From: Paraspadella gotoi | Taxonomy: Eukaryota; Animalia; Chaetognatha | Direction: 5' to 3' | DNA length: 64,000 nucleotides | Assembly (NCBI GenBank): GCA_051294375.1 | Contig: JBJCIZ010000239.1 | Location: forward strand, 6,487,996-6,551,995 | Shown: piece by piece, positions 7,801-51,725 of the stretch | Position numbering within the stretch: position 1 is the stretch's first letter | How the letters are laid out: every line of letters begins with the position of its first letter | Position numbers and translations under genes: made by a program | Notes under the pieces: generated by a model | Told to the model about the DNA's origin: nothing | Seen by the model: the letters and a program-made list of their open reading frames with translations, nothing else | The model's database searches: none

Positions 7801-9752
7801 AGTAAGACAGGTGTCATGCTTAAAGGCGGGGTGAACTTATGCACCGACTACACCCCTTGTCACCTTAAAACTCCTTCACCCAATTTCTAACCCACCCCAA
7901 AAAATGAAAACCCCTTACCGGTCATCGAAGATGTTTCTGTTAGAAAAACGAATGTTGTAGAGCGGCCACTGGTGAGGCCACTCGCTAAGCGGCGACCGCC
8001 GCGGCGGAGACGGTAGCCGAGGCGGTGGCCGAGGCGATGGCGTGGAGGGTGTTGTTGAAGGGGGTGGCGACGACGTCGACGACGATGTTGGCTTCTCGGT
8101 CCCCTTCTTTGGCGACTTCTTCGGTCGTTTCTTCGGTCGTTTCTTCGGCAGCGGCGTCTTTGGCATACCGATCATTCCCAGGAGTCGCTCGCAGTGTCGG
8201 CATTCGCTCGTGTCCCAGAGGAAAGGATAAAGAGTCATGACTTTGTCCGGGAGGAAGGGGTAGAGCTGCGGTTTCTTCACGTGCATCTGGTTGATGGCAC
8301 CAAGGTAAGCAGCGACCTTCGCGTTGAGTTCCAGTTGTTTAGGGAGAAGACGAACGATTTTTTTTTCGAAGGTTTGTCGCTGTGGATATTGAAGGTTAGG
8401 ATAGAGTTAGATCGATGGAGGAAGATAAAGATTAAGTCGGGGGGGCTAAGATGGTCACAAGTTAGTCGCAAGATAGTCTTTTAAGTACATGAATGGCTAG
8501 TGCATAGTACAACAAAAGATTCCCTGGTCTAAAATTGGAGGGGGTTGTCTTATTAAAACATTCATTGAATTATTTATCCATTGATAAGGAAGCCAGATGC
8601 ACTGGAACTTCCTTAACTAGACTGTGGGAGAGTCTTGATTGAAAGCTGGCGGAATCTCGCTATGAAATAAGTACCACTTTAATAAAAATTATACTTTTAT
8701 TGAATAAACAAGTTATCTTGCCCCTGACATTAGTCTCTGGATAGTCTAGGGTCGGTTTTTGGCCTTCATCGCTCATACAAGATTTTAACAAGATCCTGAA
8801 CGTTTTCAATTAGGACGCAATCATAGTTTAGTTTACTTACTCCCTTTGTGCTCGGCTTCCCTATCAACATTATTTCAACGGGATGATTGTAAATATCTTG
8901 TAAAAATGGCGGCTCTCTCTCTCTCTCCCTCTCCCAACTTCCTCCTCCTTTTTTCCCTCCCCCCTTTCCTGCAGAGTAAAAAGGAAGGACTTGTCTTTCA
9001 ATCTCTTTTCGTTGACGTAGAGTGAGAGATTTGTCCCGTACACCGTCGGGTTGGTTGGGAGACAAGTGACCCCAGCCTGACAGGAAGTTTGATGAGAGTA
9101 CATGACCCCGCTGATGTAGCCGAGGAAGACGGGGCTTTGAATGAACATCATGAGCATGAGGTAGAGGCCAGGGAAGAGGAAGATCATCACGGCCGACGCT
9201 TTCTGCTTAACCTACGGACGGGATGTGCGAATACGGAAGGGGGGCGGTGGGGTTTAGGGCGTGGGTTAGGTGTTGAGGAAGTAGGGGTGTGGTGAAGGGG
9301 GAAACTTTGGACTTTAAGCAAGTCTCTTACCCACATTTTTACGCCCATACATACTGATGTATTTGAAAAAGCAATTTTGAACTTTAAATGTATCATAAAA
9401 ATACCGAGACTATGGATAATTTCTTGAAACAGAGCGTCATAACGTCTCTGCTCTACAAATAATTTTTTTTTATTTTGAGGCATGCTAAGTACCATGGTTT
9501 TGAATTTGATATTAAACATGGCGTTGAGCTTCTGAAAAGTCAGCTTAGGTCCAGGTTGTGTGACTTTCCCCATTTTAGGCAACTTGGCTCCTCGTCTGAC
9601 GTGGAGAGAGAAAAAGAAAAAATGGAGGAAAATAAACTAAAAAAATTAAAATTGTAATATTTGTCCAAATTTCTTTTTTTTAAACATCAATTTTCTGCAT
9701 CGCATTCTGGCTATTCCATCTAAACAGACGACAAGAACAACAACGACAATCA

Positions 9753-18700: not shown

Positions 18701-20634
18701 AACTTATGCACCGACTACACCCTTGCTCACCTTTAAAACTCCTTCACCCAATTTCTAACCCACCCCAAAAAATGAAAACCCCTTTACCGTGCATCGAAGA
18801 TGTTTCTGTAGCGAAAAACGAATGTTTGTAGAGCGGCGACTGGTGAGGCCACTCGCTAAGCGGCGACCGCCGCGGCGGAGACGGTTAGGCGAGGCGCGTG
18901 GCCGAGGCTTGTGGCGTGGAGGGAGTGTTGTGAAGGCGGGTGGCGACGACGTCGACGACGATGTTGGCTTCTCGGTCCCCTTCTTTGGCGACTTCTTCGG
19001 TCGTTTCTTTCGTTCGTTCTTCGGCAGCGGCTGTCTTTGGCATACCGATCATTCCCAGGAGTCGCTCGCAGTGTCGGCATTCGCTCGTGTCCAGAGGAAA
19101 GGATAAAAGAGTCATGACTTTGTCCGGGAGGAAGGGGTAGAGCTGCGGTTTCTTCACGTGCATCTGGTTTGATGGCACCAAGGTAAGCAGCGACCTTCTT
19201 TCGCGTTGAGTTCCAGTTGTTATAGGGAGAAGACGAACGATTTTTTTTTTCGAAGGTTTGGCGCTGTGGATATTGAAGCGTTAGGATAGAGTTAGATCGA
19301 TGGAGGAAGATAAAGATTAAGTCGGGTGGTAAGATGGTCACAAGTTAGTCGCAGATAGTCTTTTAAGTACATGAATGGCTAGTGCATAGTACAACAAAAG
19401 ATTCCCTGGTCTAAATTGGAGGGGGTTGTCTTATTAAAACATTCATTGAATTATTCATCCACTACCATTGATAAGGAGCCAGATGCACTGGAACTTCCTT
19501 AACTAGACTGTGGGAGAGTCTTGATTGAAAGCTGCGGAATCTCGCTATGAAATAAGTACCACTTTATAAAAATTATACTTATATTGAATAAACAAGTTAT
19601 CTTGCCCCTGACATTATGTCTCTGGATAGTCGTGGTCGGTTTTTGGCCTTCATCGCTCATACAAGATTTTACAAGATCCTGAACGTTTTCAATTAGGACG
19701 CAATCATAGTTTAGTTTACTTACTCCCTTTGTGTCGGCTTCCCTATCAACATTATTTCAATGGGATGATTGTAAATATCTTGTAAAAATGGATGCAGGCG
19801 GCTCTTCTCTCTCTCTCCCTCTCCCAACTTCCTCCTCCTTTTTCCCTCCCCCCTTTCCTGCAGAGTAAAAAGGAAGGACTTGTCTTTCAATCTCTTTTCG
19901 TTGACGTAGAGTGAGAGATTTGTCCCGTACACCGTCGGGTTGGTTTGGAGGACAAGTGACCCCAGCCTGACAGGAAGTTTGATGAGAGTACATGACCCCG
20001 CTGATGTAGCCGAGGAAGACGGGGCTTTGAATGAACATCATGAGCATGAGGTAGAGGCCAGGGAAGAGGAAGATCATCACGGCCGACGCTTTCTGCTTAA
20101 CCTACGGACGGGATGTGCGAATACGGAAGGGGGGCGGAGGGTTTAGGGCGGTGGGTTAGTGTTGAGGAAGTAGGGGTGTGGTGAAGGGGAAACTTTGGAC
20201 TTTAAGCAAGTCTCTTACCCACATTTTTACGCCCATACATACTGATGTATTTGAAAAAAAGCAATTTTGAACTTTAAATGTATCATAAAAAATACCGAGA
20301 CTATGTAATATCTTGAAACAGAGCGTCATAACGTCTCTGCTCTACAAATATTTTTTTTTTTTTGAGGCATGCTTAGTACCATGGTTTTGAATTTGATATT
20401 AAACATGGCGTTGAGCTTCTGAAAAGTCAGCTTAGGTCCAGGTTGTGTGACTTTCCCCATTTTAGGCAACTTGGCTCCTCGTCTGACGTGGAGAGAGAAA
20501 AGAAAAAATGGAGGAAAATAAACTAAAAAAATTAAAATTGTATATTGTCCAAATTTTCTTTTTTTTAACATCAATTTTTCTGCATCGCATTCTGGCTATT
20601 CCATCTAAACAGACGACAAGAACAACAACGACAA

Positions 20635-28300: not shown

Positions 28301-31300
28301 ATTTTTATTTTTTATTTTAAAATTTATTTGTTTATTGTTTTTGTTGTTTGTTTTTATTTTTTAATATCTTTTAATTCTTTATGTTTATTTTTGTTAAATT
28401 ATTTTTTATTTTAATTATTGTTTCTTCATTATATTTTTATTATAAAATTTTTTTTTTTATTTTTATTTTTTTTAATTTAAATTACTATTTACAAATTTGT
28501 TATAATTTTTTTCTTTAAAATTTATTTAAAAGTATATTTGTTCTAATTTATTTTTTTTCACAAATATAAATTATTTTTATGAAATTCTTTTTATTTTTAT
28601 TAAAATTTTATCAATTTTATTATTTTTGTTGTTGTATTATTAATTTTTATTTGTTTTTTATTCTATTATTTTTTTTTAATAATTTTTCTTATTCTTGTAA
28701 AAATGATTTATTTTAATTTTTTTAAAAATTTTTCTTTTTTTTATTATTTTTTATTATAAAAATTGTAATAATTTTTATTTCAAAAAAATAATTTGTATTC
28801 TTTTTTTTATAAAAAATTTATAAATTTAATAAATTTTTTCTTCATTTTATTTCATCCATTATATTTTACATTTAATTTTTTTTAATTATTGTTCTTTAAA
28901 AAAACCAATAATTTTTATTTATTATTTTTATTATTAATTTTTTTTTTTTTATTCTATTTCTTTTATTTTTTTTAAAATTAATTAAATTTTGTTTTTAATT
29001 TTTTATTATTTTATTTTTGTTAATAAATTTATTTTCTTAAAATGTTTAAAATTTTTTTTTAATTTTTTTATATTTTTTTTTTTTAAATTTTTTCAAAATT
29101 CTTATTTTTTTATAATTATTTTTTTTTTTTTTTTAATAATTTAATCTTTATTATTAGATCAAATTTTTTTTTTTTATTTTATTTTTTTTTTTTTTATTTT
29201 TTTTAAATTTATAAATTTTTTTAAATATTTTTTAATTTTTCTTTTTTTAATCTATTATTTTGTACGTTTTTAAATGTTATTTTTGGTAATATCTTAAAAA
29301 ATTTTTTTTTGGTTATTAATTTTACCCATATTAATATTTAATTTTTTATCTAATAAATTTCTTCCAAAAATTTTTTTTTTTATGATTCTTTGTTTAATTT
29401 CGTTTCTAATTTTTATTTATTATTTTTTATCTGTGTACTATGTACTTAAATTCTAATAATCTTCTTTTATTTTTTCTTTTTTTTTGTTAACATATCCATA
29501 AAATTAAATTTTTTTTAATTTTTTTTCTCTTTTTTTTTTATTAATGCTCTGCATTTTCTTTTTATATTGTTTGTCTCTCAAATTTTTGTAATTTTTTTTT
29601 TCCCCTTTTTTCTTTTTAAACATCTTATCTCTTTTTATTCTTTTATTCTAAATTTTATTCTTTTTTTTTTTTTAAATCTTTATGTTTTTCTTATAGAAAA
29701 GCTTTTGAAATTTTTCGATTTTATAAGGATAGTACTATATTATAATATAGCCTACTGCGAAAATTAAAAAACATAAAATTAATTTTTTTTTTACAAATTA
29801 AATGTTCACTATGGTATGTTGTTCATAATTGACTTTTAGAATTTTTCGTACTGTAACTTCACTACGCCTTAATATACATATTAATGGGTTTTTGATGTTA
29901 TTGATAGGTGATTTAATTATTTTTAAGACAAACTGTGAATTAAACAGAGAGACAGGAAGAGCCATTTCAGTGAACACGATGCGAGAACATTACAAAAAAA
30001 TTAAAGGCTGTACAAAGTCTGCATAATACTAGTTATGCTATTATTAATAGCACGCAAAATTTCTAAAAATATTAAATTCATTAGCCTCAATGTTAACCTT
30101 CACAGCCTTTCTCTCTCATCCACTATGGAAGCGTATGACGGATAGAGCGATGAGATTACTTAACGTAATTTGATGACAGCTGCACGGCCAAAGTCCCAAA
30201 CCGAGGTGATAATAAAAGGTGACGGTCGGTGATTGTACTTACTCACCGGCCGCGCGAACGGCGTCGAACTTCCTTACCTGCCGAGAAAAAGTGGGAGAAA
30301 TTGAATGAATTATGGTGGACTAAATCTCGCCAAACCGTTTCATCAGCGGCCATGGTGCCCGCAAGGCAAGTCATTCGCCTCCAACACCAAAGGATACGGC
30401 GGTTCAAGCCGCGTGTGGTCGTATCGGAGGTTAAGAGGGACGGGACGCTTAACCCGCCTGTATCATGGTGTATACAGCCCTGCATCCGAACGCGCAGGGA
30501 CTGCTGATATTCTGTCACTAAACAACATAACAATAGTTACTGTTCTCAGAATTATTAAATAGCTCAATTAACTCAACTTTTTTGTATGAGCTTAAAATAG
30601 TTGTTTCAATTCCGTAATAAGCTTTTTTCTCTCAATCTCATTTATTATTTGCTTTAGGCTAAAACTCTAGCTAGTTTTTTTTGTGCATTGTTGAGAAGAA
30701 TTCTGTTTAGAAGTACAAGATTTAGGGTAACATTAGGGTTAGTGATTAGATTAAATTAGAAAAATAAATTAGGATTTATATTCTGGATTTGATAAAACTT
30801 TACGAATAGATCGGTAAAAATATTAAGCGTTTAAAATCAAATTCCAAATTAAATCTAAAGAACCGAAAATAGGCTAGTCTGTTGCATAAAGTCAGCGTTG
30901 GTAACGCTCCCTTCAAATTCATCATTGCAACGAATTTTCTGCTTCAAACCTCAACCCACTGGAAACATCTTAAACGTCTTGAACGCTTTCCGAATCCTCC
31001 GTTCGTGAATACTTTTTCTCCCGTAGTTGTGTAAGTCTTTTTCTCACTCATTCGCTTGTAAGTGTTGTAAAGGCCATGTAATATTGTTTAAATTCTTTCA
31101 AAGTAGAGGATCTGGAAAAAAAGAGCGTGGTTTTTTTTTTTTTTGTTGGTTTGTTATAAAGCACTGTTGTCGGTAGTACGTTTTACCCTTCAACTCGGCT
31201 GACCAGATCAACAACAGCTATGGCGCCGGAGGTAACATGCACTCCTCCCAACTCAACCAGGTTAGGGTTCACAACCTGCTAAGGGGGCGTCTAAACCCAC

Positions 31301-34300
31301 CTGTAAGTGACGGCTAACAGCTCGCGGCATTGTCCTCCAGTGGTTAGCCCAATTACAATCATGCTGCATACGCTACACCTTCTGCCCGGGCCTGTTAAAA
31401 CAACTCTGCCCCTCAACCAATGCTGGAAAGACGGAGCCAGGGGACAGAAGCCGTCGAAAGGCACTCAGCAGCATCAACCAACAGCATTCAGACTATCACA
31501 CTTTAGGGCCGGCGGCGATGCCGAGGAGGATTTGTTCTGTGGTAGTACAAATAATACCACACAAGTTCATCCAAGAATGAGCAGCACTTATGCTGTCAGA
31601 CGGTACAACCGCCAAAGACTTGGGTTCGTTCCCTGCCTGATTCAATACAAGTGGAGGCGTGATGGGGTGTCTAACCCACTTTGTAGTGACAGACTACAGC
31701 ACAGTTAAAGTATTGGACCTTGTGTGCAATGAACGATGGTCCTGGCATCGTTTTTTTACAACCACCTATTTTAACCTCAAATTTTGTCTAAGTTTAAACA
31801 CATAGGCTCAGGGTATTAGAGTTAAGGACTACTTAATATAGATTAGTTAGGGATTAGGCGTTAGGGGATTTTGTTTGCTAGTTATCTAGATAAAGAATTA
31901 GATTTCTAGAATTAGGATTAAAGTTAAGCATTTCGGTTTAGGGAATAGTCAGGAAAAGATTAAGGTCTAACTTAAAAATAATAACTAGACTGAGGGAAAG
32001 GACCAGATATAAGGCTTTTGTGGAAGAAAAGTTTTTGGGACTTTTTGAAACTGTTCGATAATTGAATCATCTCGAGTAAGACAGGTGTCATGCTTATAGC
32101 GGGGGTGAACTTATGCACCGACTACACCCTTCTCACTTAAAACTCCTTCACCAATTTCTAACCCACCCAAAAATGAAAACCCCTTACCGTCATCGAAGAT
32201 GTTTCTGGTAGCGAAAAAACGAATGTTTGTAGAGCGGCGACTGGTGAGGCACTCGCTAAGCGGCGACCGCCGCGGCGGAGACGGTAGGCGAGGCGCGTGG
32301 CGAGTGCGTGGCGTGGAGGGAGTGTTTGAAGGGGGTGGCGACGACGTCGACGACGATGTTGGCTTCTCTGGTCCCCTTCTTTGCGAATTCTTCGGTCGTT
32401 TCTTGGTTCGTTTCTTCGGCAGCCGGCTTCCTTTTGGCATTACCGATCATTCCCAGGAGTCGCTCGCAAGTGTCGGCATTCGCTCGTGGTCCAGAGGAAA
32501 GGATAAAAGAGTCATGACTTTGTCCGGGAGGATAGGGGTAGACGCTGCGGTTTCTTCACGTGCATCTGGTTGATGGCACCAAGGTAAGCAGCGACCTTTC
32601 GCGTTGAGTTCCAGTGTTTAGGGAGAAGACGAACGATTTTTGTTTTCGAAGCGTTTGGCGCTGTGGATATTGAAGCGTTTAGGATAGAGTTAGATCGAAT
32701 AGAGGAAGATAGAAGATAATCGGGTGGTAAGATGGTCACAAGCTTAGTCGCAGATAGTCTTTACAGTTACATGAAGGCTAGTGCATAGTACAACAAAAGA
32801 TTCCCTGGTCTAAAATTGGAGGGGGTTGTCTTATAAAACATTCATTGAATTATTCTCCATCCCATTATAAGAGGCCAGATGCACTGGAACTTCCTTAACT
32901 AGACTGATGGGAGAGTCTGATTGAAAGCTTCGAATCTCGCTATGAAATAAAGTACCACCTTATAAAAATTATACTTATATTGGAATAAACAATTATCTTG
33001 CCCCTGACATTATGTCTTGGATAGTCTAGGGTCGGTTTTTTTGGCCTTCATCGCTCATACAAGATTTTACGAAGATCCTTGAACGTTTTCAATTAGACGC
33101 AATCATAGTTTAGTTTACTTACTCCCTTTGTCTCGGCTTCCCTATCAATATTAATTCAATGGGATGATTGTAAATATCTTGTAAAAATGGATTGCAGGCG
33201 GGCTTCTTCCTCTCTCTCCTCCTCTCTCCCAACTCCTCCTCCTTTTTCCCTCCCCCCTTTCCTGCAGAGTAAAAAGGAAGGACTTTGTCTTTCAATCTCT
33301 TTCGTTGACGTAGAGTGCGAGATTGTCCCCGTACACCTGTCGGGTTTGGTTTGGAGAACAAAGTGACCCCAGCCTGCACAGGAAGTTTGATGAGAGTACA
33401 TGACCCCGCCTGATGTAGCCGAGGAAGAACGGGGCTTTGAATGAACATCATGCAGGCATTGGGAAGGTAGAGGCCAGGGAAGAGGAAGATCATCAACGGC
33501 GCCGACAGCTTTCTGCTTAACCTACGGACGGGAATGTGCGAATTACGGAAGGGGGGCAGGAGGGTGAGGGGCCGGTGGGTAGTGTGTGAGGAAGTAGGGG
33601 TGTGGGAAGGGGAAACTTTGGACTCTAAGCAAGTCTCTTACCCACATTTTTACGCCCCATACAATACTGATGTATATTGACAAAAAAGCAATTTGAACTT
33701 TTACAATGTATCATAAAAAATACCTCGAGACTATGTGATTTCTTGAAACAGGCAGTCGTCATAACGTCTCTGCTCTATAAATATTTTTTTTTCTTGAGGC
33801 ATGCTTAGTACCATGGTTTTGAATTTGATATTAAACATGGTCGTTTGAGCTCTGAAAAGTCAGCTTAGGTCCAGGTTGTTGCTGACTATTTCCCATTTAG
33901 CAACTTGGCCTATCCTCGTCTGACGTGGAGAGAGAAAAAGAAAAAAATGGAGGAAAATAACTAAAAAATTTAAAATTTGTATATTTGTCCAAATTTCTTT
34001 TTTTTAAACATCAATTTTTCTGCATCGCATTCTGGCTATATCCATCTAAAACAGACGACAAGAACAACAACGACAATCACTCTCTCTCTGTCTCTCTTCT
34101 GTCTCTCTCTTCTCTTTCTTTCTCTTTCTCTTTCTTTCTTTCTTTCTCTTTGTACTATATATTCATTGCTATGCTAATTGTATTTATTTTATGAAATTCA
34201 TATTTTTAATTTCGGTGTCACTGATTAAAAGAATAGATAAAATATATATAATAGTAATATTATCATATAAATAATTAATTATTATATTAGTTAAAATTTC

Positions 34301-37300: not shown

Positions 37301-39859
37301 TTTTTTTCAAATTTCTTTAGAAAAACTTAGAGAGAAAAAAATTAAATACGTAAAAAAAGTGAGTTGGAACAATAAAACCCGATTTACAACGCCAACTTTC
37401 TCCATCTCATTGTCAAGGCATAAATCTTAAAGCAGATCAAATATATAAAATTGAAACATAAAATTATTTTTATATGTTTTATTTAACTAATTTTTAAAAA
37501 TCATTGAAATAACACTAGTTGCAAATGTCAGCGCTTTTTTACCGGCGCTTGTTAAAATTGTCACATGTTGAAATCAGATTTTACCGTTTTTTAAAGCTCA
37601 GGTTAGAAATTAAGGTCAGAAGATTTAGCTAGGGTTTAGGTTTAGAATTTGGTTCGCTCGATACAGATTAGGGTAAAAGAAATATGTTATGGGCGTTTTA
37701 AAATAAAGGAGAATTAAACTATTATGTTAAATAAAAATTCAGAGATTAAGGAACAGAAATAGAGCACTTTTTACGAACAAAAAAGCTTTTAAAGTCTGAA
37801 ACTTTAATCAAATCCATTAGGAACAGAAATGAGGCCGGTTTTCAGAAAATAGTTTCTCATACTTATTTCTTTCAGAAAATTGAGGAGCCCAGATGCACTG
37901 GAGGTATCTCGTTGATGAGGATGCGCCTTTCTGTCGGCCAGCGATGTCGGCTTTCGTCCATCGAAGTGTGTCTTGTCAAGATGATTACCTTTTTTTCGTT
38001 TTTTGGGGGTTTTTTATAAATAATAATTGATGAATAAATAAATAAATGGATTTAATACAATAAAAAGATTGATAAATACAATGATTAAGAAAACGCTCGA
38101 GGTAAGTCTAAAGAGAAGAAAGAAAAAGAGCAAAGAGTTGAAAGAAAATTACAGACAAAGAGAGAGAGATAGGAACAGAGAGTAGCGTGTGCATAAAGAT
38201 GAAAATAGAGGGAGGGAGAGAGAGAGCGATGAAGGAGAGATGAGAGAGAGGATGAGAGAGAGAGAGAGAGAGAGAGAAGAGAGAGAAAGAGAGAAGATCC
38301 GCCAGAACCGCCTTCAACCTTCCCCTGCTTTCCTCCTTCAGACGATCCCACGAAGACGCCGCTCCTCGAGAAAGGGTCCAACCGGCCGTGGGTTCGTCGA
38401 AGCAGCACCATCTTTCGGATCCCCGTCAACCGCGATGGCGACCGAAAGTCTTACCGCTTCTGTCCTCCGCCTCAACTTTCTCGTCCACCGTGTCTTTCTT
38501 CTCCCAAGGAGAATTGTTCAGACGACTTTTCGCGTCTTTGAGCGGACTTGTTCTTATTGTTTGCCGGATGCCCTGTCGTGGAGACGGGAGGGAGGGAGCG
38601 AAGCTTTGGCGGGAGAGGGGAGCGAGAAGAGACCTTTTTGACTCGCAGAGTAGCAGAGAGAGAGGAGAGATAGATGAGAGATCGAGAGGAGAGAGAGAGA
38701 GAAGAGAGAAGAGAGAGAGCAGAGAGAGAAGAGAGAGAGAGAAAGCAGAGAGAAGAGAGAAAATAAACAAAGAATTGATTTTTCGAATGCTCCAAAGTTA
38801 TTAAAGTTTACACGAAAACAAATGATACCATACAATTAAAAAAAGTAAAATAAATTAACAGAAACTCACAATGTAATGTACTACATAGTTTACATTTTCA
38901 GTGTTTACACAAAAAAGAGAGAAAGAGGGGGAGAGAGGGAGAGAGAGAGACACAAGCCTCACCCGCTCACCTGGAATCTGCTGAAGAGGACCAAATGTTC
39001 CTTGCAGGTCAAATTGTCGAAGATGATGTCGTGTTGGGGACAAATGCCTGTCATCTGAAGAGGAGAAGGACGTGAACGGTGAACCCGTCTTTCGTCTCTT
39101 ATCGATATGAAAAAAAGGCTTTTTCTCTGACCCCTTGTCTGTAAGCTTCTCCTTTTGTGTCCTTCAATCTATCAATCAATCAATCAAGCAATCTACCAAA
39201 CAATCAATCAATCAGATAATCAAGCTTTCAATCACTCAATTACTCAATCGGTCAGTCAACCAATCATTCATTCAATAAATCACTAAGTCGATCAATCACT
39301 CAGTCAATCAATCACTTACTTAATCAATCACTCAGTCAATAAACCATTAACTCAATCAATAACTCAGTCGATCAATCACTAACTCAATCAATCAATCACT
39401 TACTCAATCAATCACTCAGTCAATGATTCACTTTTCTCCTTCATAACCTCAAGTTTTTTTCTTTCTTTCTTTAATCTCCCTTCATTCTCTCCCCCCTTCA
39501 TCCCCCCGATCCCCACGACCCACCCCTCGTATCGCCGTCATCCCGAACGGGTCCGTGATGTCGTTCCCGTACAGCCGGGCCGTACCGCCCGTGGGCCGGA
39601 CGAGTCCGATCAACATGTTGATGGTGGTCGTCTTCCCGGCGCCGTTGGGCCCGAGGATGCACGTGATCTGAGTGGGGGCGCTTAGAGCGGTCTGCATGGG
39701 TAGAGAACCGACTGCCGGAGACGGGGAGTGCGTGGGCGGCGTGAGCTTTGGCGGAGATGGGCGTATCTGAGATGTGGGTAACAGGACGAGGGCGAAATTT
39801 GGTTTGTGGCAGGCGGGGGGCACCTCTCTCCTCTACTCTCTGCGTGCTCGTCTCTCTCT

Positions 39860-39905
<46 letters not shown>

Positions 39906-42900
39906 TTGACACATTTTTGTCTGTGTAAATCAAATTCAATTTTAACGCTGATGAAGGCTCGCGAATAGAGCCGAAACATGTACGTTTTTTAAATGAAAAT
40001 AAAATCGTTGTTGTAAACAATTCAAACGCTTTTTCTAAATGATAAAAAACTATAATAAAAAACCCTAACCATAACTATCCAAAACCCTAAACCATCCCTA
40101 ACCCTAAACAGTAAACACCCTGTAACCCGAGTTGGAGAATTTAAAATTAAGACTCTTTTTTTAATCCCTCAACTTGAATTTTTAAAACTAATATTTAATC
40201 CTAATCTGTTATTAAACATGAAACATGATCCAACCTGGACCATTTATTCAATATTCATTAATTCTCCTTGACCACTCGTCATACATCAGACCGCGTGGCC
40301 AAATGGAGAAGGCGTCTGACTACGAATCAGGAGATTGAGGGTTCGAGTCCCTCCGCGGTTAACATTCAAAACTATTTAAACTATGCGAAATATTTTGTTT
40401 AATTTCTTCAGGCCAATCATATTATCTTTTATCCAAGCTTTTGCGTCCGAGCTCTTTGAGACTTGTTTACTCCTTTTGCTTTACCTTCAAAGCGATCTTC
40501 CCATCCAAGCTTGGGCGTCCAAGCTTTCTCTCTGGCTCAATTTTAAAACGATCTTCCCATTCAAGCTCTTGGCATCCAAGCTTTCTCTCTGCCTCACTTT
40601 TAAAGAGATCTTCGTGTCCAAGCTCTTGGCGTTAAAGCTCTCTCTCCAACTTATCTTCAAAGCAATCTTCCAATCCAAGCTCTTGGCATCCAAGCTTTCT
40701 CTCTGCCTCACTTTTAAAGCAATCTTCACATCCAAGCTCTTGGCGTCCAAGCTCTCTCTCCGCCTCACCTTTAATGCAATCTTCCCATCCAAGCTCTTGG
40801 CATCCAAGATTTTTCTCTGCCTTACCTTTTAAGCGATTATTCAATCCAAGCTTTCTCTCTGCCTCACCTTCAATGCGATCATACCATCTTGCATTGCGAT
40901 GCGATCTTCCCATCCAAGCTTTCTCTCTGCCTCACCTTCAAAGCAATCTTCCCATCCAAACTTTCTCTCTGCCTCACCTTCAAAGCGATCTTCCCATCCA
41001 AACTTTCTCTCTACCTCACCTTCAAAGCTATCTTCCCATCCAAACTTTCTCTCTGCCTCACCTTCAAAGTGATCTTCCCATTCAAGCTTTCTCTCTGCCT
41101 CACCTTCAAAGCAATCTTCCCATCCAAGCTTTCTCTCAGCCTCACCTTCAAAGTGATCTTCCCATCCAAACCAGTATATAAGGTGATAGACAGACGCGGG
41201 TCTATTACCCCCTCCTTCTCATTCACCTCCTCTTCATCCTCCTCCCAGGGATTCGGGGCCGCGTTCACGAGATTCAGTTCACCTTCCTCTATTCTCCTAC
41301 TAGTTTCTCCCCTTTTTTTACTCTCATGATTGTCGCCGTATAGATTTTCCTGCCGTCGTGACTTTACTTCCGGTTAGGATACCTTTTCAGAGCAAACTTT
41401 CTCTCTGCCTCACTTTCAAAGCGATCTTCCCATCCAAACTTTCTCTCTGCCTCACCTACAAAGCGATCTTCCCATCCAAGCTTTCTCTCTGCCTCATCTT
41501 CAAAGCGATCTTCCCATCGAAACTTTCTCTCTGCCTCACCTTCAAAGGGATCTTCCCATCCAAGCTTTCTCTCTGCCTCTCCTTCAAAGCGATCTTCCCA
41601 TCCAAGCTTTCTCTCTGCCTCACCTTCAAAGCGATCTTCCCATCCAAGCTCTTGGGGACGGGTTCAACTACTTCCGACACTAGGTCCGCGTTGGTCGCGT
41701 CGTCAGCTTCGATGTTCGGCAACTCTCTCCTTCTGTTTTGACAGCAGGACCAGTAGTGGGGAGTGCAAAAGAAACAAGGGTTTCTCTGAAGGAGGGGGGG
41801 AAGGAAGGGGGCGGGAGGTGGGTTGTGTAGTAAGGCGTAGTGAAAGTTACATACGAAAATTCTAAAAGTCATTTATGAACAACATACCCTCAGTGAACAT
41901 TAATTTGTAAAAAAAATTAATTTTATGTTTTTTAATTTTCGCAGTAGGCTATATTTATATATAGTACTATCCTTATAAAATCAAAAAATTCAAAATAGGC
42001 TTTTCTTAATTTTGATTGCAGATTTGAATTCCTCGTCAAAAGTTGATAAAGAAAATATAAATCATTTTTAAAAATTCTTTCATTAAGTGGGTTAAAAATT
42101 AAAAAAACTATATTTAATATATAAAAAGTTAATTTTCAGCTTAAAATATAGCTTTTTCTAATTTTTGACTCACTTAATGAAGGAATTTTTCAAAAAGTTA
42201 TATTTCTTTTTACCAACTTTTTATGACGAATCAAATCTGCAAAAAAATCTTAGAAAAAACTGTTTGAAATTTTAACATTTATGGTTTAGTACTAGTATAA
42301 ATATGGCCTACTGCGTAAATTGTAAAATTATTAGAATTTTTTTATTACAAATGTTTATTAGTATAGATTGGTTCGTTCCTCACTTTTAGAATTTAATTAA
42401 AGTTAAATTTAGAAATTTTACTACGCCTTATTGTGTAGTCAGGCATAGCAAAGTTCACCCCGCCTCTAAGCATGACACCTTCAGTCAAGATCCGGTGGCT
42501 CATTGAGTAAAGCCATCAGCTCATAACCACTAGGTACCGGGTTCAATCCCAACCCGGTACTTCCCTGCGGAAGTGTGAGGACGGCCGTAAGCGCCTTGGG
42601 GGCGTGGAAAACCCTCAAGCCTGGTTCCAAGCCCAGGACCCGTTCCATAGCTGCTAGAGGGGGTTAAAGAAGTTGCGGATAGTCATCTTCAGCCCACTTA
42701 GCGCCTTATCCATACTGGTGAGCCCATCCTGTTGAGCATATTCCAACCTTTTGATTCCAGGCCCATGGACGTGCTGAAGATTGCTCCCCTCCCTCCACTG
42801 GAAGCAGTGCAGGTGGGTTACAATCTGGGGGCATGTAGTCGGGCATAGCAAAGTTCACCCCGCCTCTCAAGCATGACACCTTAGGTTCGTGACCGTTTGG

Positions 42901-44776
42901 CTTTGAAATAAAGCAAAGTCAAGCTCATTGAACCTACTAGGTATACGAGTTCAATCTCTAACCAGTAACGCCGTAAGACGTTGGGCGTGGAACTCAACTG
43001 GTTAACCAGGACTTCATACTCTCGAGGGGTTAAGTAAGTCATCTTAGCTAGCGCTATTCAAGGTAGTTGTCTTTTATATACTATAATTATATGCTAGTAA
43101 AGATTTACAATTTACTTCAGTGTACAGAAGAATATTTTTAGACGATCTAGTAGAAGAGATTAGATGAGAGAGACCTTGTACCTAAACCATCTGGAAGAAG
43201 TTCTAATGAAATTGTTTATACAGTGTGTCCTATACTACTATATGGCTGTGAGGTAAAAACTTTTTTGGGCTAGAGACATGAACAGAATTAATGTTGCTAT
43301 TAATGATGGTATCATGAAAATTATTCGGATTCAAACCGATGGAAAGCATTAGAGAGCTTCGGACTTTAGTTTGGTTACTGTGATATTATTACATGTTTAA
43401 CCAGCGTAAAAAGAACTTTATTTCCAAGATCTATAGTTCGAAAATTTAGTTTCAAAAAAATAATCGCATTCTTTAATGATTGAAATATATTAATTGATAA
43501 TTTGGACCTTTGTTGTCTGTGGTGGTGGTTTTCACGCAATCTTTAACTTTGTTTGTTTTTAGACTTAGCTTTTTTGATGCTCCTGTATGTAACTGAATCA
43601 ACCTTGTTGAATCGAAATAAAACGCATTCTAAGCATGACACCTTCAGTCGTGACCGTGGCTCATTGAGTAAAGCCATCAGCTCATGACCACTAGGTACCG
43701 GGTTCAATCCCAACCAAGTGTGAGGACGGCCGTAAGCCGCCTTGGGGGGTGGAAAACCCTCAAGCCTGGTCCAAGCCCAGGATCCGTTCCATAGCTGCTC
43801 GAGGGGTTAAGAAGTTACGGATAGTCATCTTCAGCCCACTAAGCGCCTTATCCACAGTTGTAGCTTTAATGTTCGTTTATTATACATATAAAATTTTTTA
43901 TTGCTAGTATTATTAAGATTATTTTATACAATATTTTAACTTTCAATTGATTGGATTGACGAGAGAGAGAGAAGAAGAAGAGAGAGAAGAGAGAGAGACA
44001 CCTGCAGCCGGTTCCCGTAGACGGTGGGAAAGAAGTGCTCGAGATAAACTGCGATAGCAAGAAGGCGATGAATTCGACAGAGAGAATATAAGACCGAGCC
44101 TGAGAAGAAATTTAATGTAATAAATATATAATAAAATACTTAATTATATTTCAAATATCTAAATTAATAATTACTTGAAAAAAAATGTGTTGATGAACAT
44201 TTTACAAATTTAAAAATAGAAAGAAAGAATAAGATTAATCTATGAAACTTCGATCCAAAATTAAATTAATTTCAAAGTTAAAGATTAGGTTAAAGATTAA
44301 AGTTAGGGATTAGGTTGTGGATTGGCTTAAGAATTAAGATTGGGATTAAGTTTGTAATAGGGTTTAGGGATTAGAGTGAAGGATCAAAGTTAACATCAGG
44401 GATTGAATAAAAATTTGTTAAGAGGTTAGATCTTAGGGTTAAAATAAAGTAAAACAGAAATGAGCGCGGTCTCGGTAAATAGTGCCGAAACGTGGGGTCC
44501 CTAACTGCGCCGTGAATGTCCAGTAGAGGGAAGTGCCGTCGTCTCGTTCGTCGGAAGCTCAACTTCTTCGTTGATGAGATCCCATCTGAGAGAAGGAAGA
44601 AGGAGAGGGTTGGTGGGGAGTGGGAGGGAGTGGGGAGTGGGGGAAGGGGAGAGATGGTGGGAGGAGGAGGAGGGGAGGGGAAAGGGAAGATGGGGAAGGG
44701 AAAGAATTTTAGGGAAAGGAGAGAGGAAAGGAGGAAGATGAGGAAGAGAAGAGAGAGGAAAGGAGAGAGGGTTGAT

Positions 44777-44833
<57 letters not shown>

Positions 44834-45078
44834 GGACGTTTGTAGAAAAAAGAGAAGAAACGAGGAGGGGAAATAAAAGAGAAAAAAAAAATCAGGAGTG
44901 GATGTAGGGAAAAATATATCCTTCTCTCTTTTTCTCTCTCTCTCTCTATCTTTCTGTCTTTTTCTATCTCTTTCTTTTCCCTGTTTTACTCTCTCTCCTC
45001 TCTCTCTTCTCTCTCTCTCTCTCTCTCCTGTGTCTCTTCCTCTCTCTTTCTATCCAACCCTTCCCCCTCTTCCCCCTC

Positions 45079-45143
<65 letters not shown>

Positions 45144-48100
45144 ACGTGACGCTTCGCTCGACGGCGGCGAGCCAGACGCAATGAGTGAGAGCGAGACAGA
45201 TGGCGACTTGCGGTACGATGGCGAAGATGCAGGCAACGGCGAAAGGAATCAGCATCATGACGAACATGAGGATGGGTGTGGCCAGAGCAAAGAAGAAGGC
45301 GCTGATGATGCTGAAGACTGCGTTCGCGTTTTTTTGTGTGTGCGTATGTGTGTGTATTCGTGTTTATTTGTGTGGAGGTGGAGTAAGTTAAGAGGGATGG
45401 AGAGAAAGCGGGAGGAAAGGGACGGGCATTGCCTAAGTTCAACCCGTTTCTGAGCATGACACTTTCAGTCGTGACCCGGCGGCTCATTGAGTAAAGCCAT
45501 CAGCTCATGACCACTAGTTACCGGGTTCAATCCCAAACCGGGAAGCGTGAGAACGGCCGTAAGCCGCCTTGGGGGCGTGGAATTCCCAGCCCAGGACCCG
45601 TTCCATTGCTTCTAGAGGGTTTAAGGAAGTTGCGGTTAGTCTGCGGGTAGACTACCAGTCATCCTCGGCCCACTTAGCGCCTTATTCACATTAAGTTCAG
45701 GGGTCGTTCCAATGGTGGCGTAGGGTTGAAATCCTTACCCCATACAATTAAATCAAATCAAATCAACTAATCCAATCGATCAATCAAAATCGCATTAATA
45801 CCTGCGGCGCTTTTCACGCTCTTGAAGAGAACCGAAACGACGAAGGATTGAGAAATGACGGTGAGAGAGTAAATCCAGAAAAGAATGAAGAAGACGCTCC
45901 TGCAGAGCGAATAAATTTTAAAAATATATATTATATACAAATGTATTAAAATATCTGTTCAATTCTTATCTATCTATTCTAAGCTAAATCTAAATTTATT
46001 ATTCTTAATATTAATAGAAACAGTTGCTCTCCCCCTGACCATTCAATGTTGCCCACGATCCAATCCGATCCGACGACCATGATGAGCATTAGGCAACTTA
46101 GGATGAGCGCCTCGAAAGCATTGACGACGAGGTAGGACAACCAGAAGGCAGACTCCAACATGCCCATCACCCGCATCATGTCTTTGATCTGTAGGTTTGA
46201 AAAACATGGGAAGGCGTGGTTGAGGGTTGGTAGTTGGCAGGGAGGGATGGATCTGAAGAAAACTTAATTTCTGATATTATTGTAGTCGGGCATTGCCTAG
46301 GTTCACCCCGCCTATAAGCATGACTCTTTCAGTTGTGACCCGGTGGCTCATTGAGTAAAGCCATCAGCTCATGACCACTAGGTACCGGGTTCAATCCCAA
46401 CCCGGTACCTACCTTGCGGGAAGAGTGAGGACGGCCGTAAGCCGCCTTGGGGGCGTGGCAAACCCTCAAGCCTGGTTCCAAGCCCAGGACCCGTTCCATG
46501 TCTGCTAGAGGGGGTTATAGAAGTTACGGATAGTCATCTTCAACCCACTTATTATTATTATTACGCTCAAAAATTTTGTAAAGAGAGCGAATTTTGTCAT
46601 TTACACATACAGAGGCAGCAAATAAATATTGTAACATATCCCAATCCTTTCATCACCCCTCCCTAAAAATAAATTCGTTCGAAGAAAAAAAAAAAAACTA
46701 AAAAAAATAAATCTTCAAGGTTTTTGCGTGTGTAAAAATGTTGCGCAGTATGCATAGTACGCAATGCATACGAACCTAACCTTGCTCTCTTTCTCGCTGA
46801 CCAACTGAACGACGAGAGAGACGTAAAATGGAATGAGACCCAAAGCCGCGGCCACGCCCAACAGATGATATTGGCCGGCGGCGCCGACTGCCGGCCGGCC
46901 ATCCGGCGTGTAGGTTAGACGAGGGACGGGGAACATCTTGACGCTGTAGTTGAGACGGAGGCCGCTGATGACGGGCGGGTCGGAGCCTGGCGGGAGAGGG
47001 GGGAGGGAGAAGAAGGGAGGGAGAAGAAGGGAGGGAGAATAGGGGAGGGAGATGGTGGGAGGAAGGGAGGTGGTGGAGTGGGAATGTAAAGAACCCAAAG
47101 TTTTGATAAAACGTGATTTACATCTTTTTAAAAATGTTTAACCTTTTTTTTTTTGTAAGGTGGAAAAGACGTAAAGGGGATTTGTTTATATGTTTATATT
47201 TGATTATATATACATTCTATCCCGTGTTTAACAGCAACGTTTGTTAGAAATGATTTTAATTCAAACAAATTCTCTTCGTGAATATCTGAATTGTTTTTAG
47301 TCTCTACTTTAATGATTTTATATCTTTACTCTCATTGGTCGAATTCTACCAATAGTAGTTAATGATTGAATTCTCAATAATTTTAAAGAAGATCTCTCTT
47401 CTCATTGGTCCATTAAATTTAGTCTTTGTATAAAAGAAAGGGCAACTTTTATTTTTTGAAGAGATTGCCCTGGGACCATAAGGTAATTGAATGATTTACT
47501 GAAATTATTAAATAGTGGAATTAGTATTAATAAATGGTTATATTTTGTAGCTTTTGAGCTTCCACAGCTCTTCCAATGGCTCTTCCACAGCTCTTCCAAT
47601 GGCTCTTCCACAGCTCTTTCAATGGCTCTACTGATTGTTATTTCGATTGTCCTTATAACTGTCAACTGAATTACAACTAACTTCAATTAATACTACTAAT
47701 GGCGTTACGGTTATTGATGAGTCAACAATAGAGAAATTAATATGAAGGATGCTCAATCGTGTTCCCAAGTCCGTAAGGAAATGTGCAATCTCTAACACCG
47801 TTAATGTTATCAGAGTAAATGTATTATGTTTTCCCTTCTCATTTTTCTTAACATTTTTAGTCGTTTATGATTAATCCCTTCTTTACAATATTAGGAACGC
47901 TTCACAATCTTAATTCACATTTCCGTCCTGGTCCAGTATCCTCCTTAAAACGACCACCCCCAACCACCCCCTCCCCAACCACCCACAACGTCCACCCTTA
48001 ACCCACTTACCCCGGGTGAGTTCCTCCAAAATGGCGGATTCGACGACCATCTGCAGCTGCGCATATCCGCTGAGGAGATAATCGTTCGGCGGGCAGTTTG

Positions 48101-51100
48101 AGGAGAGACCCTGGTTATTGATAGTGGTTATTGATAGTGGTTAATGATTGGTGGATGGAATTGTGGATGGATCAGAGAATGGTTTTGTGGATGGATCATA
48201 GAATGGTTTTGTGGATGGATCAGAGAATGGTTTTGTGGATGGATCAGAGAATGGTTTTGTGGATGGATCAGTGGTTAGATTAAAGAAACAAAATTCATTG
48301 CTCTTTAACTCTTAAACTGGAAATTCAAAATCGGTATCTAAAATTTTTTTTTTTTCACTTTTTTTACCATCTTATTGAAAGAATTTTTTAAAGAAAGAAT
48401 TATACTTTCTTATAAACTTTCTTATGAAATTGGTACAACCAATATAAAAATTATCCATTCATTTAATAAATAAGCTATCTTGCCCCTGACTTTGGACAGG
48501 CTTTGGTGGTTTAAGGCCTCCATCACTCTTACAAGATAATGACATAGCAGGTCCCTGCAAGCTTTCAATCAAGACTCTCTCACAGACTTGTTTATTCACT
48601 CCCAGAGTACCTGGCTTCCCTATCAATGAAGTGGAAAATATTTCAAAGAATGTTTCAATTGTATGAAAAGACCACTCCCTTAAGTATTAGATCGGGGAAT
48701 ACTTATTGTACTCCGCACTAGCATCAAAATACAAGGAGCTGAATTTTATGAAATTGGTACAACCAATATAAAAATTATATCATTCCCCCCAAATTTTTTT
48801 CCCGCTCCCTACCTTCAAAAGCGGTTGGTAGCAATAACGCGTCTCCAAATAAGAAGATGCGATCGCTTGAAAATCCGCGCGTGGACCCTTTTTGGGGACC
48901 TGGAAGAGGGTGGACGGGGATCGGGAAGAGGGTTTGAGGAAGATGAGGCGAGGAAGGGGGTGTTGATCGCCTGATCGAATCCCACCCCCCAAAAAAAAGA
49001 CTGGTCACGTGACTTTATAAAAGTATGAAATAAATGCAGAGTGAAATGGAAAATCCTGATGGATCGTCTACTTTTTCCCGGGAAAACTTAACCAAACCGC
49101 GGCATTGAGTATGTCATGTCATGTCGCAATAACTCATTGGGCGTGTGAACGCGTTATCTCGTACTGAACGAGCGACAAAAAGGGAAATTTAATTTCCTGT
49201 AAACTATTTTTTTTTTTCATAATATTTTGTATTTATTTGCTTAACGCTTTTCTTTTTTCTGAATTTTTTCGAATTTACCTGCAGAACCAAACCCGGGCCG
49301 GGCATTCGGATAGCGTATTTGGGTGTCCGGATCTTCATAGGATCTGGAAGATATAAACAAAAATTGCGATTCTAAATTGAATCGAATGTCAGGGACGAAT
49401 TTCCACGCCATCTCGTTCGTTTAATAAAGGAATTTTTGGTTGAGGCTGAATCACGAAGCTGACATTTTGACTCTATTTAGTATTTACCCTGTCGCCATTT
49501 ATCACCACAAATATACGGACTTTTGCAGGTTGAATAATACATAAAACACTTCGGTCAGCTCCTCCCACGCAACTTTGTGTAATTTTGTGCAAGAGTTTCA
49601 CAATAATACGAAACTGTACATTTACTTTCTGACTTTCATCTTTATTCCAGCGACGCTCTATTTAGCTTTTTTTTAAAATGTATTATGTACTAGAAGTGCA
49701 TTCATATGTTTTAAAGAAAGTAAAACATTTGTCATGTAAACTATTCTCACTATACTAGCAAAGTAGATTTATAAAAATTAGAAAATAGAAAATTTCCTTC
49801 CAAGATTTTCGTTAAGAATAGTTTCGGGTTCCTAGCGTAGTGACATTCTCTTTACAATGCGTATCACTATGCATATTACTATGAATAATATGCTTTTCTT
49901 AGTGACTGTTTTGATGTCGAGAAAATTGTTTCTTCAACTTCATACTCACGAGTCAATCGCAGTTGGAGTCCGAACCAAGAATGGAATCTACACATTTAAA
50001 TGAGGGCACGATCTATAAAAAGGAGCGCCAGCGGATTCTTTAAAGCGCGAATCGTTGGCGCCGCCAATTCTTTCCCTTTACTGAATTTTCCGGCGCCGCA
50101 ACCGTCACTGACGGCGTCAGAGCCCAAAAAACTCACATGGAACGTAATCCGTGTCTTCGCCTTCGAAAACGATGGCGCCGGCAATGTTGAACTTGTAGAT
50201 TCGTCGGTAGATCTCGACCAGCTTCTCGTTATTGGCCAGGATTTGACTCTCTGCCCTCTGAGGATTAATTGATCGATTTTTTGCTAAATTGATTCATAGA
50301 GTCGTTCAGATGTTTAATTAATTGTTAATATTGCTTGTTGTTTTTTTTTTTCAGGCAGGTAACGCCCGTTTTGGGTTGTGTTTGTCAACTTGTCAGAAGT
50401 GAAAAAAAAACTGCAATGATATCGATTAATTATTATATCAAACATTAAATCAATTAATAAATCTATCAATCAAACAAACAATCAATCAATCATTCATATT
50501 CCCTGATGAATTCCAAGATCTTTGAAAATTCTTCTTGTCATCCTTTTCACTCTCGTCGAAGATATTCCATTTTGGACGACAAAAAACTGTCGCGAGTCTC
50601 TGATGATAAATATGCAATACACAATATAAAATATTATTATATTATTTTGTTATTATATAGTATTTTTTAAGGCGACAGACGGATAGACGGATAGTTTCTA
50701 TTTGAGTACAATAAATAAAGAATTACAACTTTATTGCTGAGTCAGTATCGATGCTTCATCCGAGAAAGCCCCCCCCCTCGCGGCCCCCACCCCCCCCAAA
50801 AAAAAATAATAAAGATTCACTTTTGAGTGGTGAACTGGAAAGGCTGCTCGTTGTTGAGCGTGAACTTTTTGGGTTTGGCGTTGAAGAGTGGATAAACGGG
50901 AAAGTCGACTGCGTTCATCGCTTGATCAACTCCGTCCTTCTTGAAGATCTGTCCCAGAATGATGAAGAGCAGCACGAAGAGCAGTTCCGAGAAGGTGCGG
51001 AGAAAGCTGCGCACTTTGAGCAGAAAGTTGCGGCTCATCAACGCCCAGAATTGCGGCAGGAATCCGCCGCAACAGAAGATTTTCCTCGCCGTTTTCTTTT

Positions 51101-51470: not shown

Positions 51471-51725
51471 TGTGGCGATATATTCACACCGCCTCACATC
51501 CACCATCATTCAGCCAAATCCATTGGCTCAGAGGGGGAACACACCATCCCAGGCGTAGAGTTCCATCCACAGTCCTAATGACTTCCCTCTGCGTTGGCAA
51601 AGCGAGACCGTCCTAGGGTAACCGCGCCAGTGACTGGAGGCGTCACTGAGGGTCGGAAGCCCCCAAAGCCAACAGTGAGATGCCCCATCCCAATGGGCAT
51701 CACAGGCAACCCGGCTGTTGCCATA
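51471..51725 (+). mobile_element. Family-2 solo LTR with tRNA-like boxes and twister fold
   Basis: Termini TGTGGCGA...TTGCCATA, perfect 4-bp TSD CGTG, A box TGGCTCAGAGGG, B-like GAGTTCCATCC. Homologous copy at 1880. Confidence 0.85.
51593..51673 (+). ncRNA. Twister ribozyme, type P5 (family-2 LTR)
   Basis: P5 GTTGGC/GCCAAC; GCGA-GA-CCG-TCCTAGGG-TAA-CCGC-GC; P3 CAGTGAC/GTCACTG; P4 GGG/CCC with loop T-CGG-AA-GC. T1 is CCG/CGG. Confidence 0.82.

Follow-up and report, generated by a model that had tools for sequence, protein, structure and literature searches.

A stretch of 64 kb from a contig of the chaetognath Paraspadella gotoi (hereafter the window, to which all positions and strands refer) contains five families of repeats that share a module with the architecture of a twister ribozyme. 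Our favoured reading, to which we assign a probability of about 0.45, is that the family-1 module at 46416-46494 on the plus strand is a type-P5 twister within an abundant short interspersed element (SINE) derived from a tRNA, and that a self-complementary hexamer in it, the hinge, would form helix P1 only together with a second copy. The segment comprises exactly one module, from the 5' strand to the 3' strand of helix P5, and reads GCGGG AAG AGU GAGGA CGGCCG U/AA GCC GC C-(P3 hairpin)-CCUGG UUCCAAGC CCAGG A CCCGU, the slash marking the predicted cleavage site. The order of elements is common to the five families: P5-AAG-x-L-hinge-U/AA-y-K-(P3)-P4/L4-P5. Here x and y are the strands of P2, L4 is the loop of P4, and the hinge is the segment that separates the 5-nt L strand from U/AA. 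These borders were fixed and no tuning was involved.

The original prediction had noted a short self-complementary P1 in front of UAA in four families, and the sequences were confirmed. CGGCCG is located immediately 5' of TAA in all four family-1 copies (42582, 43727, 45554 and 46432), (T)CCTAGG(G)TAA is present in both family-2 copies (2017 and 51612, the latter with the 8-nt hinge UCCUAGGG) and GACGCTTAA in all three family-3 copies (6186, 17030 and 30444). Family 4 has GGTGTCTAA in three copies and GGCGTCTAA in two. A fifth family was added, located on the minus strand at 48479-48534, with AGGCCU as hinge. In the fixed register 16 of the 18 hinge pairs from six copies were canonical or G-U, compared to 1-11 of 18 when the hexamer was slid by 1-5 bases; with eight copies 23 of 24 hinge cells paired. 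As a background, 5.1% of the hexamers on the plus strand are self-complementary when G-U pairs are allowed, and 2.0% with Watson-Crick pairs only. Hinge self-complementarity thus exceeds chance. The pair types are CG, GC, AU and GU at 1:6, GC and GU at 2:5, and GC, CG and UG at 3:4; at 1:6 and 3:4 both partner bases vary. Predicted self-duplex energies were -10.7 kcal/mol for family 1, -9.1 for family 5, -8.3 for GGCGCU of family 3, -6.3 for family 4b and -11.0 for family 2b.

Conservation of the palindrome among genomic copies was examined in contigs from four public runs of the same organism, in which summed depth is not an exact copy number and RNA ends are not visible. The sole hinge mismatch, A.C in GACGCU, occurs as a private variant of the three segmentally duplicated family-3 copies of the window. 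At 6187, G accounts for 97.8-99.8% of the summed contig depth in the four runs, which yields GGCGCU and restores pair 2:5. In family 1 no hinge variant of at least 5% was found among thousands of contig pieces from the four runs. The P1 strands abut without a loop in all families, such that P1 is not formed within one molecule and pairing is feasible only between molecules. Pair 3:4 is impossible in a single molecule because the two positions are adjacent, and pair 2:5 would enclose only two bases; this leaves 1:6 as the only pair which can form internally. The complementarity kept at 2:5 and 3:4 thus points to pairing with a second hinge. The G-U pairs in GGCGCU, GGCGUC and GGUGUC indicate that the constraint acts on plus-strand RNA and not on DNA. 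P1 appears to be under selection to pair, even though it is unable to do so within one molecule. Tentatively, we consider pairing between copies the best single explanation of the hinge covariation, at odds slightly below even.

The twister core was delineated with a covariance model (R1) built from the four family-1 copies and run unfiltered over the window. Beyond family 1, R1 recovered the minus-strand module of family 5, three copies of family 3 and one of family 4a. Families 5, 3 and 4a aligned to family 1 without a gap from 'AAG' to the dinucleotide after P2. TAA at the cleavage site is present without variation in all eight copies of alignment A6, and in family 2b as well. The pseudoknot PK2 connects the last three bases of L with positions 4-2 of L4, using the triplets GGA:UCC, UGG:CCA, CGG:CCG and CCG:CGG. 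The fourth triplet is supplied by family 2b along with complete P3, P4 and P5 (P3 7/7 pairs, P4 3/3, PK2 C:G, C:G and G:C, PK1 G:C and C:G; the P5 pairs were read directly from the sequence). In six copies 17 of 18 PK2 pairs were formed, with GC, CG or UA at position 1 and AU, GC or GU at position 3. PK1, which joins the dinucleotide K behind P2 to the two terminal bases of L4, is GC:GC in families 1, 3 and 2b and AC:GU in families 5 and 4a; here 11 of 12 pairs were formed, the single miss being due to a 1-nt deletion in copy F1a. Jointly the pseudoknots paired at 28 of 30 positions in register versus 4-15 of 30 with L4 slid by 1-3 bases. In alignment A4 (seven rows from four families; MAFFT set L4 of family 5 one column off) 92.0% of 150 cells paired, compared to 73.9% in shuffles, none of which reached the observed value (0/500), and to 27-56% with slid partners. 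In this alignment 12 of 23 pairs change on both sides, and the covariation score was 0.509 versus 0.231.

The P3 sequences are unrelated among family 1, families 3/4 and family 2b, and family 5 is devoid of P3. The P4 hairpin with an 8-nt loop ending in AAG(C/U) is present according to pair counts in the register of families 1, 3, 4a, 5 and 2b. In family 3, U at 6232 (about 99-99.98% of the contig depth) completes the fifth P4 pair. P5 closes the module in families 1, 5 and 2b, and in family 3 with wobbles, one of which is converted to A:U by the family majority base at 6171. In P2, all eight rows have G:C at x2:y2; pair x3:y1 is UG, GC or UA and is unpaired in 3 of 8, and the third pair is mostly unpaired; in family 1 the ensemble probability of P2 was 0. 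The exchange A>C at 46424 accounts for about 68-86% of the family-1 contig depth. Minor variants are C>T at 6183, with 0.3-9% of the depth, and G>A at 6227, with 1.6-13%; together they would make a U:A pair in PK2. According to passages of a report on a high-throughput assay (PMC11662667), natural twisters tolerate imperfect P1, P2 and P4 helices; sensitivity was found at A1, A2, the general-base G, PK1, PK2 and A6 of L4. Families 1, 3, 5 and 2b keep every one of the sensitive elements, and their oddities are the loopless P1 and a P2 of 1-3 bp. The compensatory changes in both pseudoknots, P3, P4 and P5, together with the ungapped R1 alignment, support a twister fold in the register of the original prediction. 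Summed over all explanations which assume it, this fold is almost certainly correct as judged from the sequences. Self-cleavage between U46438 and A46439 is predicted from the fold.

Two other registers were discarded. A parse of families 3 and 4 anchored at 'GAGGG', in which P2, L4 and PK1 are broken, was dropped because the R1 alignment gave an ungapped register. A second 'GAGGG'-like strand, GCUAGAGGGGG at 46503-46513, is located 3' of P4; it is kept in 4/4 family-1 copies, and a decayed family-1 copy at 42835-43070 carries the counterpart CUCGAGGGG. It was rejected as a substitute L strand for a type-P1 arrangement: a contiguous P2 is lacking, family 3 does not have the strand and the PK2 fit is poorer.

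In Rfam searches the modules scored low. The Twister-P5 matches of family 1 (46424-46487, 401-nt search) and family 5 (48485-48527, minus strand) compare to a gathering score of 37.6 bits. The latter had an E-value of 0.32 window-wide and of 0.00071 in a 141-nt search. The partial Twister-P1 match of family 2b (51625-51668) compares to a gathering score of 67.2. In both Twister-P5 alignments the P1 hairpin of the model, 'ccg(14)cgg', was placed onto the hinge and its loop was reduced to 0 nt. For the family-1 motif, a descriptor scored 27 hits per 1000 shuffled windows in a loose and 16 per 1500 in a strict version, i.e. a chance expectation of 0.011-0.027 per 64-kb window. At this rate a match in a single family is unconvincing, and the case rests on covariation.

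The original prediction had considered the elements as long terminal repeats (LTRs). This was not supported. The repeat which encloses the module at 46416-46494 is about 270-290 bases long, and self-BLAST identified other family-1 copies at 42434-42700, 43630-43840 and 45423-45641. The head of family 1 aligned gap-free to the tRNA-Arg gene of the window (40289-40361) over tRNA positions 1-66. The 32 columns that were invariant in all four rows concentrate at the sites of the A and B boxes. The family-1 head was not called a tRNA by ARAGORN or by the tRNA model of Rfam; in the other families the tRNA-like heads were assessed by visual inspection only. In one run (X1) 7795 contig pieces matched the family-1 copy F1d and 2315 the family-3 module. 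The summed depth was about 1-2 million on these modules, compared to about 50-120 for single long records. Between 38 and 52 kb only the elements repeat and the DNA between copies is unrelated. The layout of an LTR element, two direct repeats flanking one internal region, was absent; primer-binding and polypurine motifs were not specifically searched for. The high dispersed copy number together with the tRNA-like head identifies a tRNA-derived SINE, not an LTR.

In family 3 the summed depth of run X1 was about 27,000 before 6170, 1.9-2.4 million within 6195-6224 and about 3,000 after 6250, and loose contig ends piled up at 6172-6173 and at 6249. This step indicates that the module is common to many more elements than the family-3 head and tail, i.e. 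that it is a cassette, comparable in this to the central domains of SINEs (PMC4758252 and PMC5786205). Full-length copies of family 1 dominate the contig data and contig cover crosses the cleavage site of F1d. No pile-up of copy starts was seen at 46438/46439 among the best-supported loose ends listed (1170 others were outside this list), nor at 6192 in family 3 among those listed. Uninterrupted cover fits any model with uncleaved retrotransposition templates.

Table 1. Modules and features in the window. The first five rows give the letters of the aligned elements; bit scores refer to the models named.
Feature	Position	Strand	Letters, evidence or remarks
Family 1, aligned row			J AAG; x AGU; L GAGGA; hinge CGGCCG; U/AA; y GCC; K GC; L4 UUCCAAGC
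Family 5, aligned row			J AAG; x AGU; L GAUGG; hinge AGGCCU; U/AA; y ACC; K AC; L4 UCCAAAGU
Family 3, aligned row			J AAG; x AGG; L GACGG; hinge GACGCU; U/AA; y CCC; K GC; L4 UCCGAAGC
Family 4a, aligned row			J GAG; x GGU; L GAUGA; hinge GGUGUC; U/AA; y CCC; K AC; L4 UCUAAAGU
Family 2b, aligned row			J AAG; x CGA; L GACCG; hinge UCCUAGGG; U/AA; y CC; K GC; L4 UCGGAAGC
F1d, family-1 SINE copy: leader, tRNA-like head, twister module, tail	46280-46551	+	self-BLAST, tRNA-Arg alignment, contig pieces
F1d tRNA-like head	~46337-46411	+	B-box-like GGTTCAATCCC
F1d twister module, type-P5 order	46416-46494	+	Rfam Twister-P5 16.3 bits, E 0.53; R1 109.8 bits
F1d P5 5' strand GCGGG	46416-46420	+	pairs with 46490-46494 CCCGU; ensemble pair probability 0.8-1.0
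F1d P2 5' strand x, AGU	46424-46426	+	weak pairing with 46441-46443; family majority C at 46424
F1d L strand GAGGA	46427-46431	+	predicted general-base G, then A, then PK2 triplet GGA pairing with UCC of L4
F1d hinge CGGCCG, loopless P1	46432-46437	+	Rfam alignment: two P1 strands, 0-nt loop
F1d U/AA, predicted cleavage U46438/A46439	46438-46440	+	TAA invariant in alignment A6; position matches UAA of the Rfam consensus
F1d PK1 strand GC	46444-46445	+	pairs with G46482-C46483 of L4; AC:GU variant in other families
F1d P3 hairpin, 8 bp CUUGGGGG/CCCUCAAG, 9-nt loop	46446-46470	+	4/8 pairs change on both sides between families
F1d P4 CCUGG/CCAGG with 8-nt L4 UUCCAAGC	46471-46488	+	pair probability 0.87-0.97; L4 in register with other families
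F1a module	42567-42643	+	R1 97.8 bits
F1b module, without P5 5' strand, L4 one U shorter	43716-43787	+	R1 87.6 bits
F1c module, degenerate: L = GAGAA, deletion across P3-P4	45539-45601	+	R1 60.4 bits
F3a module	6171-6241	+	R1 16.7 bits; hinge GACGCU, family majority GGCGCU
F3 duplicate modules	17012-17089 and 30427-30505	+	R1 12.4 and 10.1 bits
F4a1 module	7368-7441	+	R1 8.6 bits, E 4.3; weakest family; duplicate hinges at 18246, 31666
F4b 5' part, hinge GGCGUC, U at general-base position	17863-17887	+	duplicate near 31275-31299
F5 module, P5 CUUG/CAAG	48479-48534	-	Rfam Twister-P5 25.8 bits; R1 20.7 bits, E 0.0033
F2b module, P5 UUGGC/GCCAA, 8-nt hinge, P3 7 bp, P4 3 bp	51594-51672	+	partial Rfam Twister-P1 match 15.2 bits
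F2a: hinge and UAA as in F2b, P3-P4/L4 deleted (derivative)	2000-2033	+	comparison with F2b

According to the favoured reading the RNA would cut between U46438 and A46439. A P1 of 6-8 bp which adjoins both active sites would arise when the hinges of two modules pair, either in a kissing interaction or in a domain-swapped dimer; the two modules could belong to separate SINE RNAs or to two copies on a single read-through transcript. By this pairing, a competing inactive hairpin would give way to the active fold. A SINE RNA on its own would remain largely uncut and could retrotranspose together with its promoter. Fold predictions for the family-1 monomer are consistent with such a switch. The nested fold compatible with a twister was predicted at -22.2 to -23.8 kcal/mol and the minimum-energy fold at -31.4 kcal/mol. 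The latter contains the hairpin GAGG-A-CGGC(CGUAA)GCCG-CCUU, which buries L, the hinge and U/AA. With pseudoknots uncounted, the inactive hairpin is thus predicted to be favoured in the monomer by 7.6-9.2 kcal/mol. For comparison, a metagenome scan with the P4/L4 pattern yielded 119 loci, of which 10 fit a descriptor of the type-P5 order and 9 were used as bona fide twisters; the family-1 element was absent among the 119. In four of four bacterial twisters from these loci the minimum-energy fold was the twister fold. The fold energy of the family-1 core itself was unremarkable (-31.4 versus a mean of -28.7, standard deviation 3.6, in mononucleotide shuffles). A shared hinge helix could tip the balance to the active form. 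Strict gating of cleavage by dimerization is plausible, at a probability clearly below even.

A number of points weigh against the favoured reading. As reported in passages of PMC5408937 and PMC11662667, P1 is dispensable in canonical twisters and a mini-twister cleaves at a near wild-type rate. Dimer dependence is therefore not required, and the analogy to helix III of hammerhead ribozymes is not compelling on its own. With a 6-nt loop as its closure, a monomer could therefore be active. At the moment of loop loss a loopless P1 is palindromic by construction, and because the families are related the number of independent hinge lineages is only about three. The self-duplex of the family-4a hinge GGUGUC is predicted to be unstable (+2.5 kcal/mol), and PK2 of the same family consists of U:A, G-U and A.C, i.e. 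contains one mismatch. P2 is only 1-3 bp long. The structure was derived from the very sequences which were scored, and these come from related families. Besides the tRNA gene no Rfam family reached its gathering score in the window, and families 3 and 4 had no twister match in Rfam at E-values up to 10. The descriptor with the chance expectation given above was post hoc.

The module might instead cleave at U46438/A46439 within one molecule as a mini-twister, the hinge of 6-8 nt serving as the closing loop. The complementarity of the hinge would then be a relic of a P1 hairpin that was lost, or have a non-catalytic purpose such as association between SINE RNAs. This is rather unlikely, although the dispensable P1, the tolerance of P1 and P2 imperfections, and the intact and covarying state of all sensitive residues and both pseudoknots would suit it. 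Further, pair 1:6, which has most pair types, could close a tetraloop in one molecule; yet 2:5 and 3:4, which cannot form there, stayed complementary through G:C to C:G and G-U changes, and the family-3 majority even restores 2:5. Efficient self-cutting would detach the tRNA-like promoter from the body, yet contig cover crosses the site, and copy starts did not accumulate at 46438/46439 in the list of the best-supported loose ends. The predicted preference of the family-1 monomer for the inactive hairpin also argues against efficient cleavage of single molecules.

Alternatively, the module could be a non-cleaving central domain of twister ancestry, the fold and hinge of which were retained for a different task in the life cycle of the SINE, e.g. 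for dimerization or packaging with the machinery of a partner long interspersed element (LINE), much as retroviruses use palindromic dimer-initiation loops of 6 nt. The sharing of the module as a cassette, the dominance of full-length copies, the weak P2 and the Rfam scores below gathering would be in line with loss of cleavage, and conserved SINE central domains without a known function are well established, as described in parts of PMC4758252 and PMC5786205. We judge this improbable: the catalytic A1, A2 and G and loop nucleotides needed for catalysis only are kept in four families, U/AA is invariant in 8 of 8 rows, and the covarying retention of both pseudoknots is a requirement of an active twister core. 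A mere chance likeness, an ordinary SINE core matching a permissive twister descriptor, is already very unlikely. It would draw on the chance rate of the descriptor, on the poor Rfam E-values at window scale and on a resemblance by eye: the bases around UAA in families 3/4 (6186-6200 with CGCTTAACCCGCCTGT, 17874-17890 with GCGTCTAACCCACCTGTAG) are similar to the CORE-type SINE sequence 'GTCACTTAACC' in the supplement of PMC5786205. Five families that differ at paired sites and yet pair in two pseudoknots and four helices, at 92% versus 27-56% when slid, speak against chance, as does the E-value of family 5 in the local search.

Among known systems the type-P5 twisters (Rfam RF02684) are closest. 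They share the order P2-GAGGG-P1-UAA-P2'-GC-(P3)-P4, an 8-nt L4 ending in AAGC and the two pseudoknots; alignment to the Rfam consensus is possible at each position, and metagenome examples have an identical layout. The window modules differ in that 6-8 self-complementary bases replace the P1 hairpin, in PK1 and PK2 letters that are off the consensus yet compensated, in a P2 of 1-3 bp and scores below gathering, and in their location inside eukaryotic high-copy tRNA-derived SINEs. Regarding dimerization, passages of PMC7761336 and PMC7229834 describe dimeric cleavage by minimal hammerheads whose helix III is weak. Minimal type I hammerheads of Penelope-like elements, of amphibian and newt satellites and of animal retrozymes likewise have a palindromic core-adjacent helix which is too short for one molecule, and they are carried by non-autonomous retroelements. 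They belong to another ribozyme class, in which helix III is essential in contrast to the dispensable P1 of twisters, and the window elements are dispersed SINEs and not regular tandem repeats.

The closest ecological analogue is the Sm-alpha SINE of Schistosoma. There, hammerhead cleavage parts the promoter from the body and cleaved single copies would not propagate (passages of PMC6765202). Its ribozyme is a hammerhead and not a twister, and no palindromic hinge is described in these passages. Defective or absent P1 helices are also found in T-variant and truncated twisters at the 5' ends of RTE/Perere-3 elements, tied to non-LTR retrotransposition as in the window. These have the type-P1 order, sit at the 5' end of the element and obtain the 5' strand of P1 from the target-site duplication, as outlined in parts of PMC8501958 and PMC7761336. 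The window module is type P5, is internal behind a tRNA-like head and has a palindrome in place of P1. In the searched literature, as far as its accessible passages go, twisters are monomeric with an optional P1, and a eukaryotic role is established only at the 5' ends of RTE LINEs. Full-text literature searches, which did not extend to subscription-only papers including the original description of twisters, retrieved neither a twister in a tRNA-derived SINE nor a twister with a palindromic P1.

The copies are clustered in the window. Five copies of family 1, including the decayed one at 42835-43070, are located within 4.2 kb (42434-46570), all on the plus strand, and families 3, 4b and 4a share one orientation over a span of 1.3 kb. 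With copies grouped on the same strand in this way, a single read-through transcript would contain two modules. The block family 3 - (family 4b) - family 4a occurs three times, at 6000-8000, 16900-18400 and 30300-31800, 10.8 and 13.4 kb apart. The three blocks differ by many single-base indels, mostly in homopolymers, and have the appearance of a segmental triplication or of haplotigs in an error-prone long-read assembly. L4 was not found in F4b (17863-17887); by their sequences F4b and the family-2 copy at 2017 are incomplete ribozymes without the L4 loop. The 2017 copy ends in a GC hairpin followed by a T run (2060-2100), which resembles a terminator of RNA polymerase III and fits SINE-type transcription. 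Decayed copies at 42956-43030 and at 8717-8780 / 19626-19664 (minus strand) contributed nothing further. Family 1 also carries the motif 'CCTTGGG' named in the PMC5786205 supplement.

The F1d copy is flanked by open exon-like stretches on the minus strand (46021-46209 and 46772-47008). A flanking stretch had a weak Pfam match to ABC2_membrane_3 (E 0.073), and a word-based search and a full HMMER search retrieved no protein relatives of these stretches. A location of F1d in an intron of a host gene was therefore not established. Around the tRNA-Arg gene long tandem arrays with periods of 42 and 57 bases, TCAA-type repeats and GA/CT microsatellites are present (40380-41900, 39147-39446 and 44720-45170).

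The twister core in the window is a cassette common to several high-copy SINE families. If hinge pairing indeed controls its cleavage, the dimeric principle of hammerheads would extend to a second ribozyme class, and the module would be the first natural twister which depends on dimerization. This would account for the ability of a SINE to harbour a ribozyme between promoter and body and still escape self-destruction, and it would equip these SINEs with a dose-dependent switch for self-limitation or for processing to unit length. That a dimer-gated twister makes up the conserved central domain of an entire superfamily of tRNA-derived SINEs seems unlikely to us. If the favoured reading is correct, one such unexplained conserved central domain would gain a concrete, testable biochemical function.

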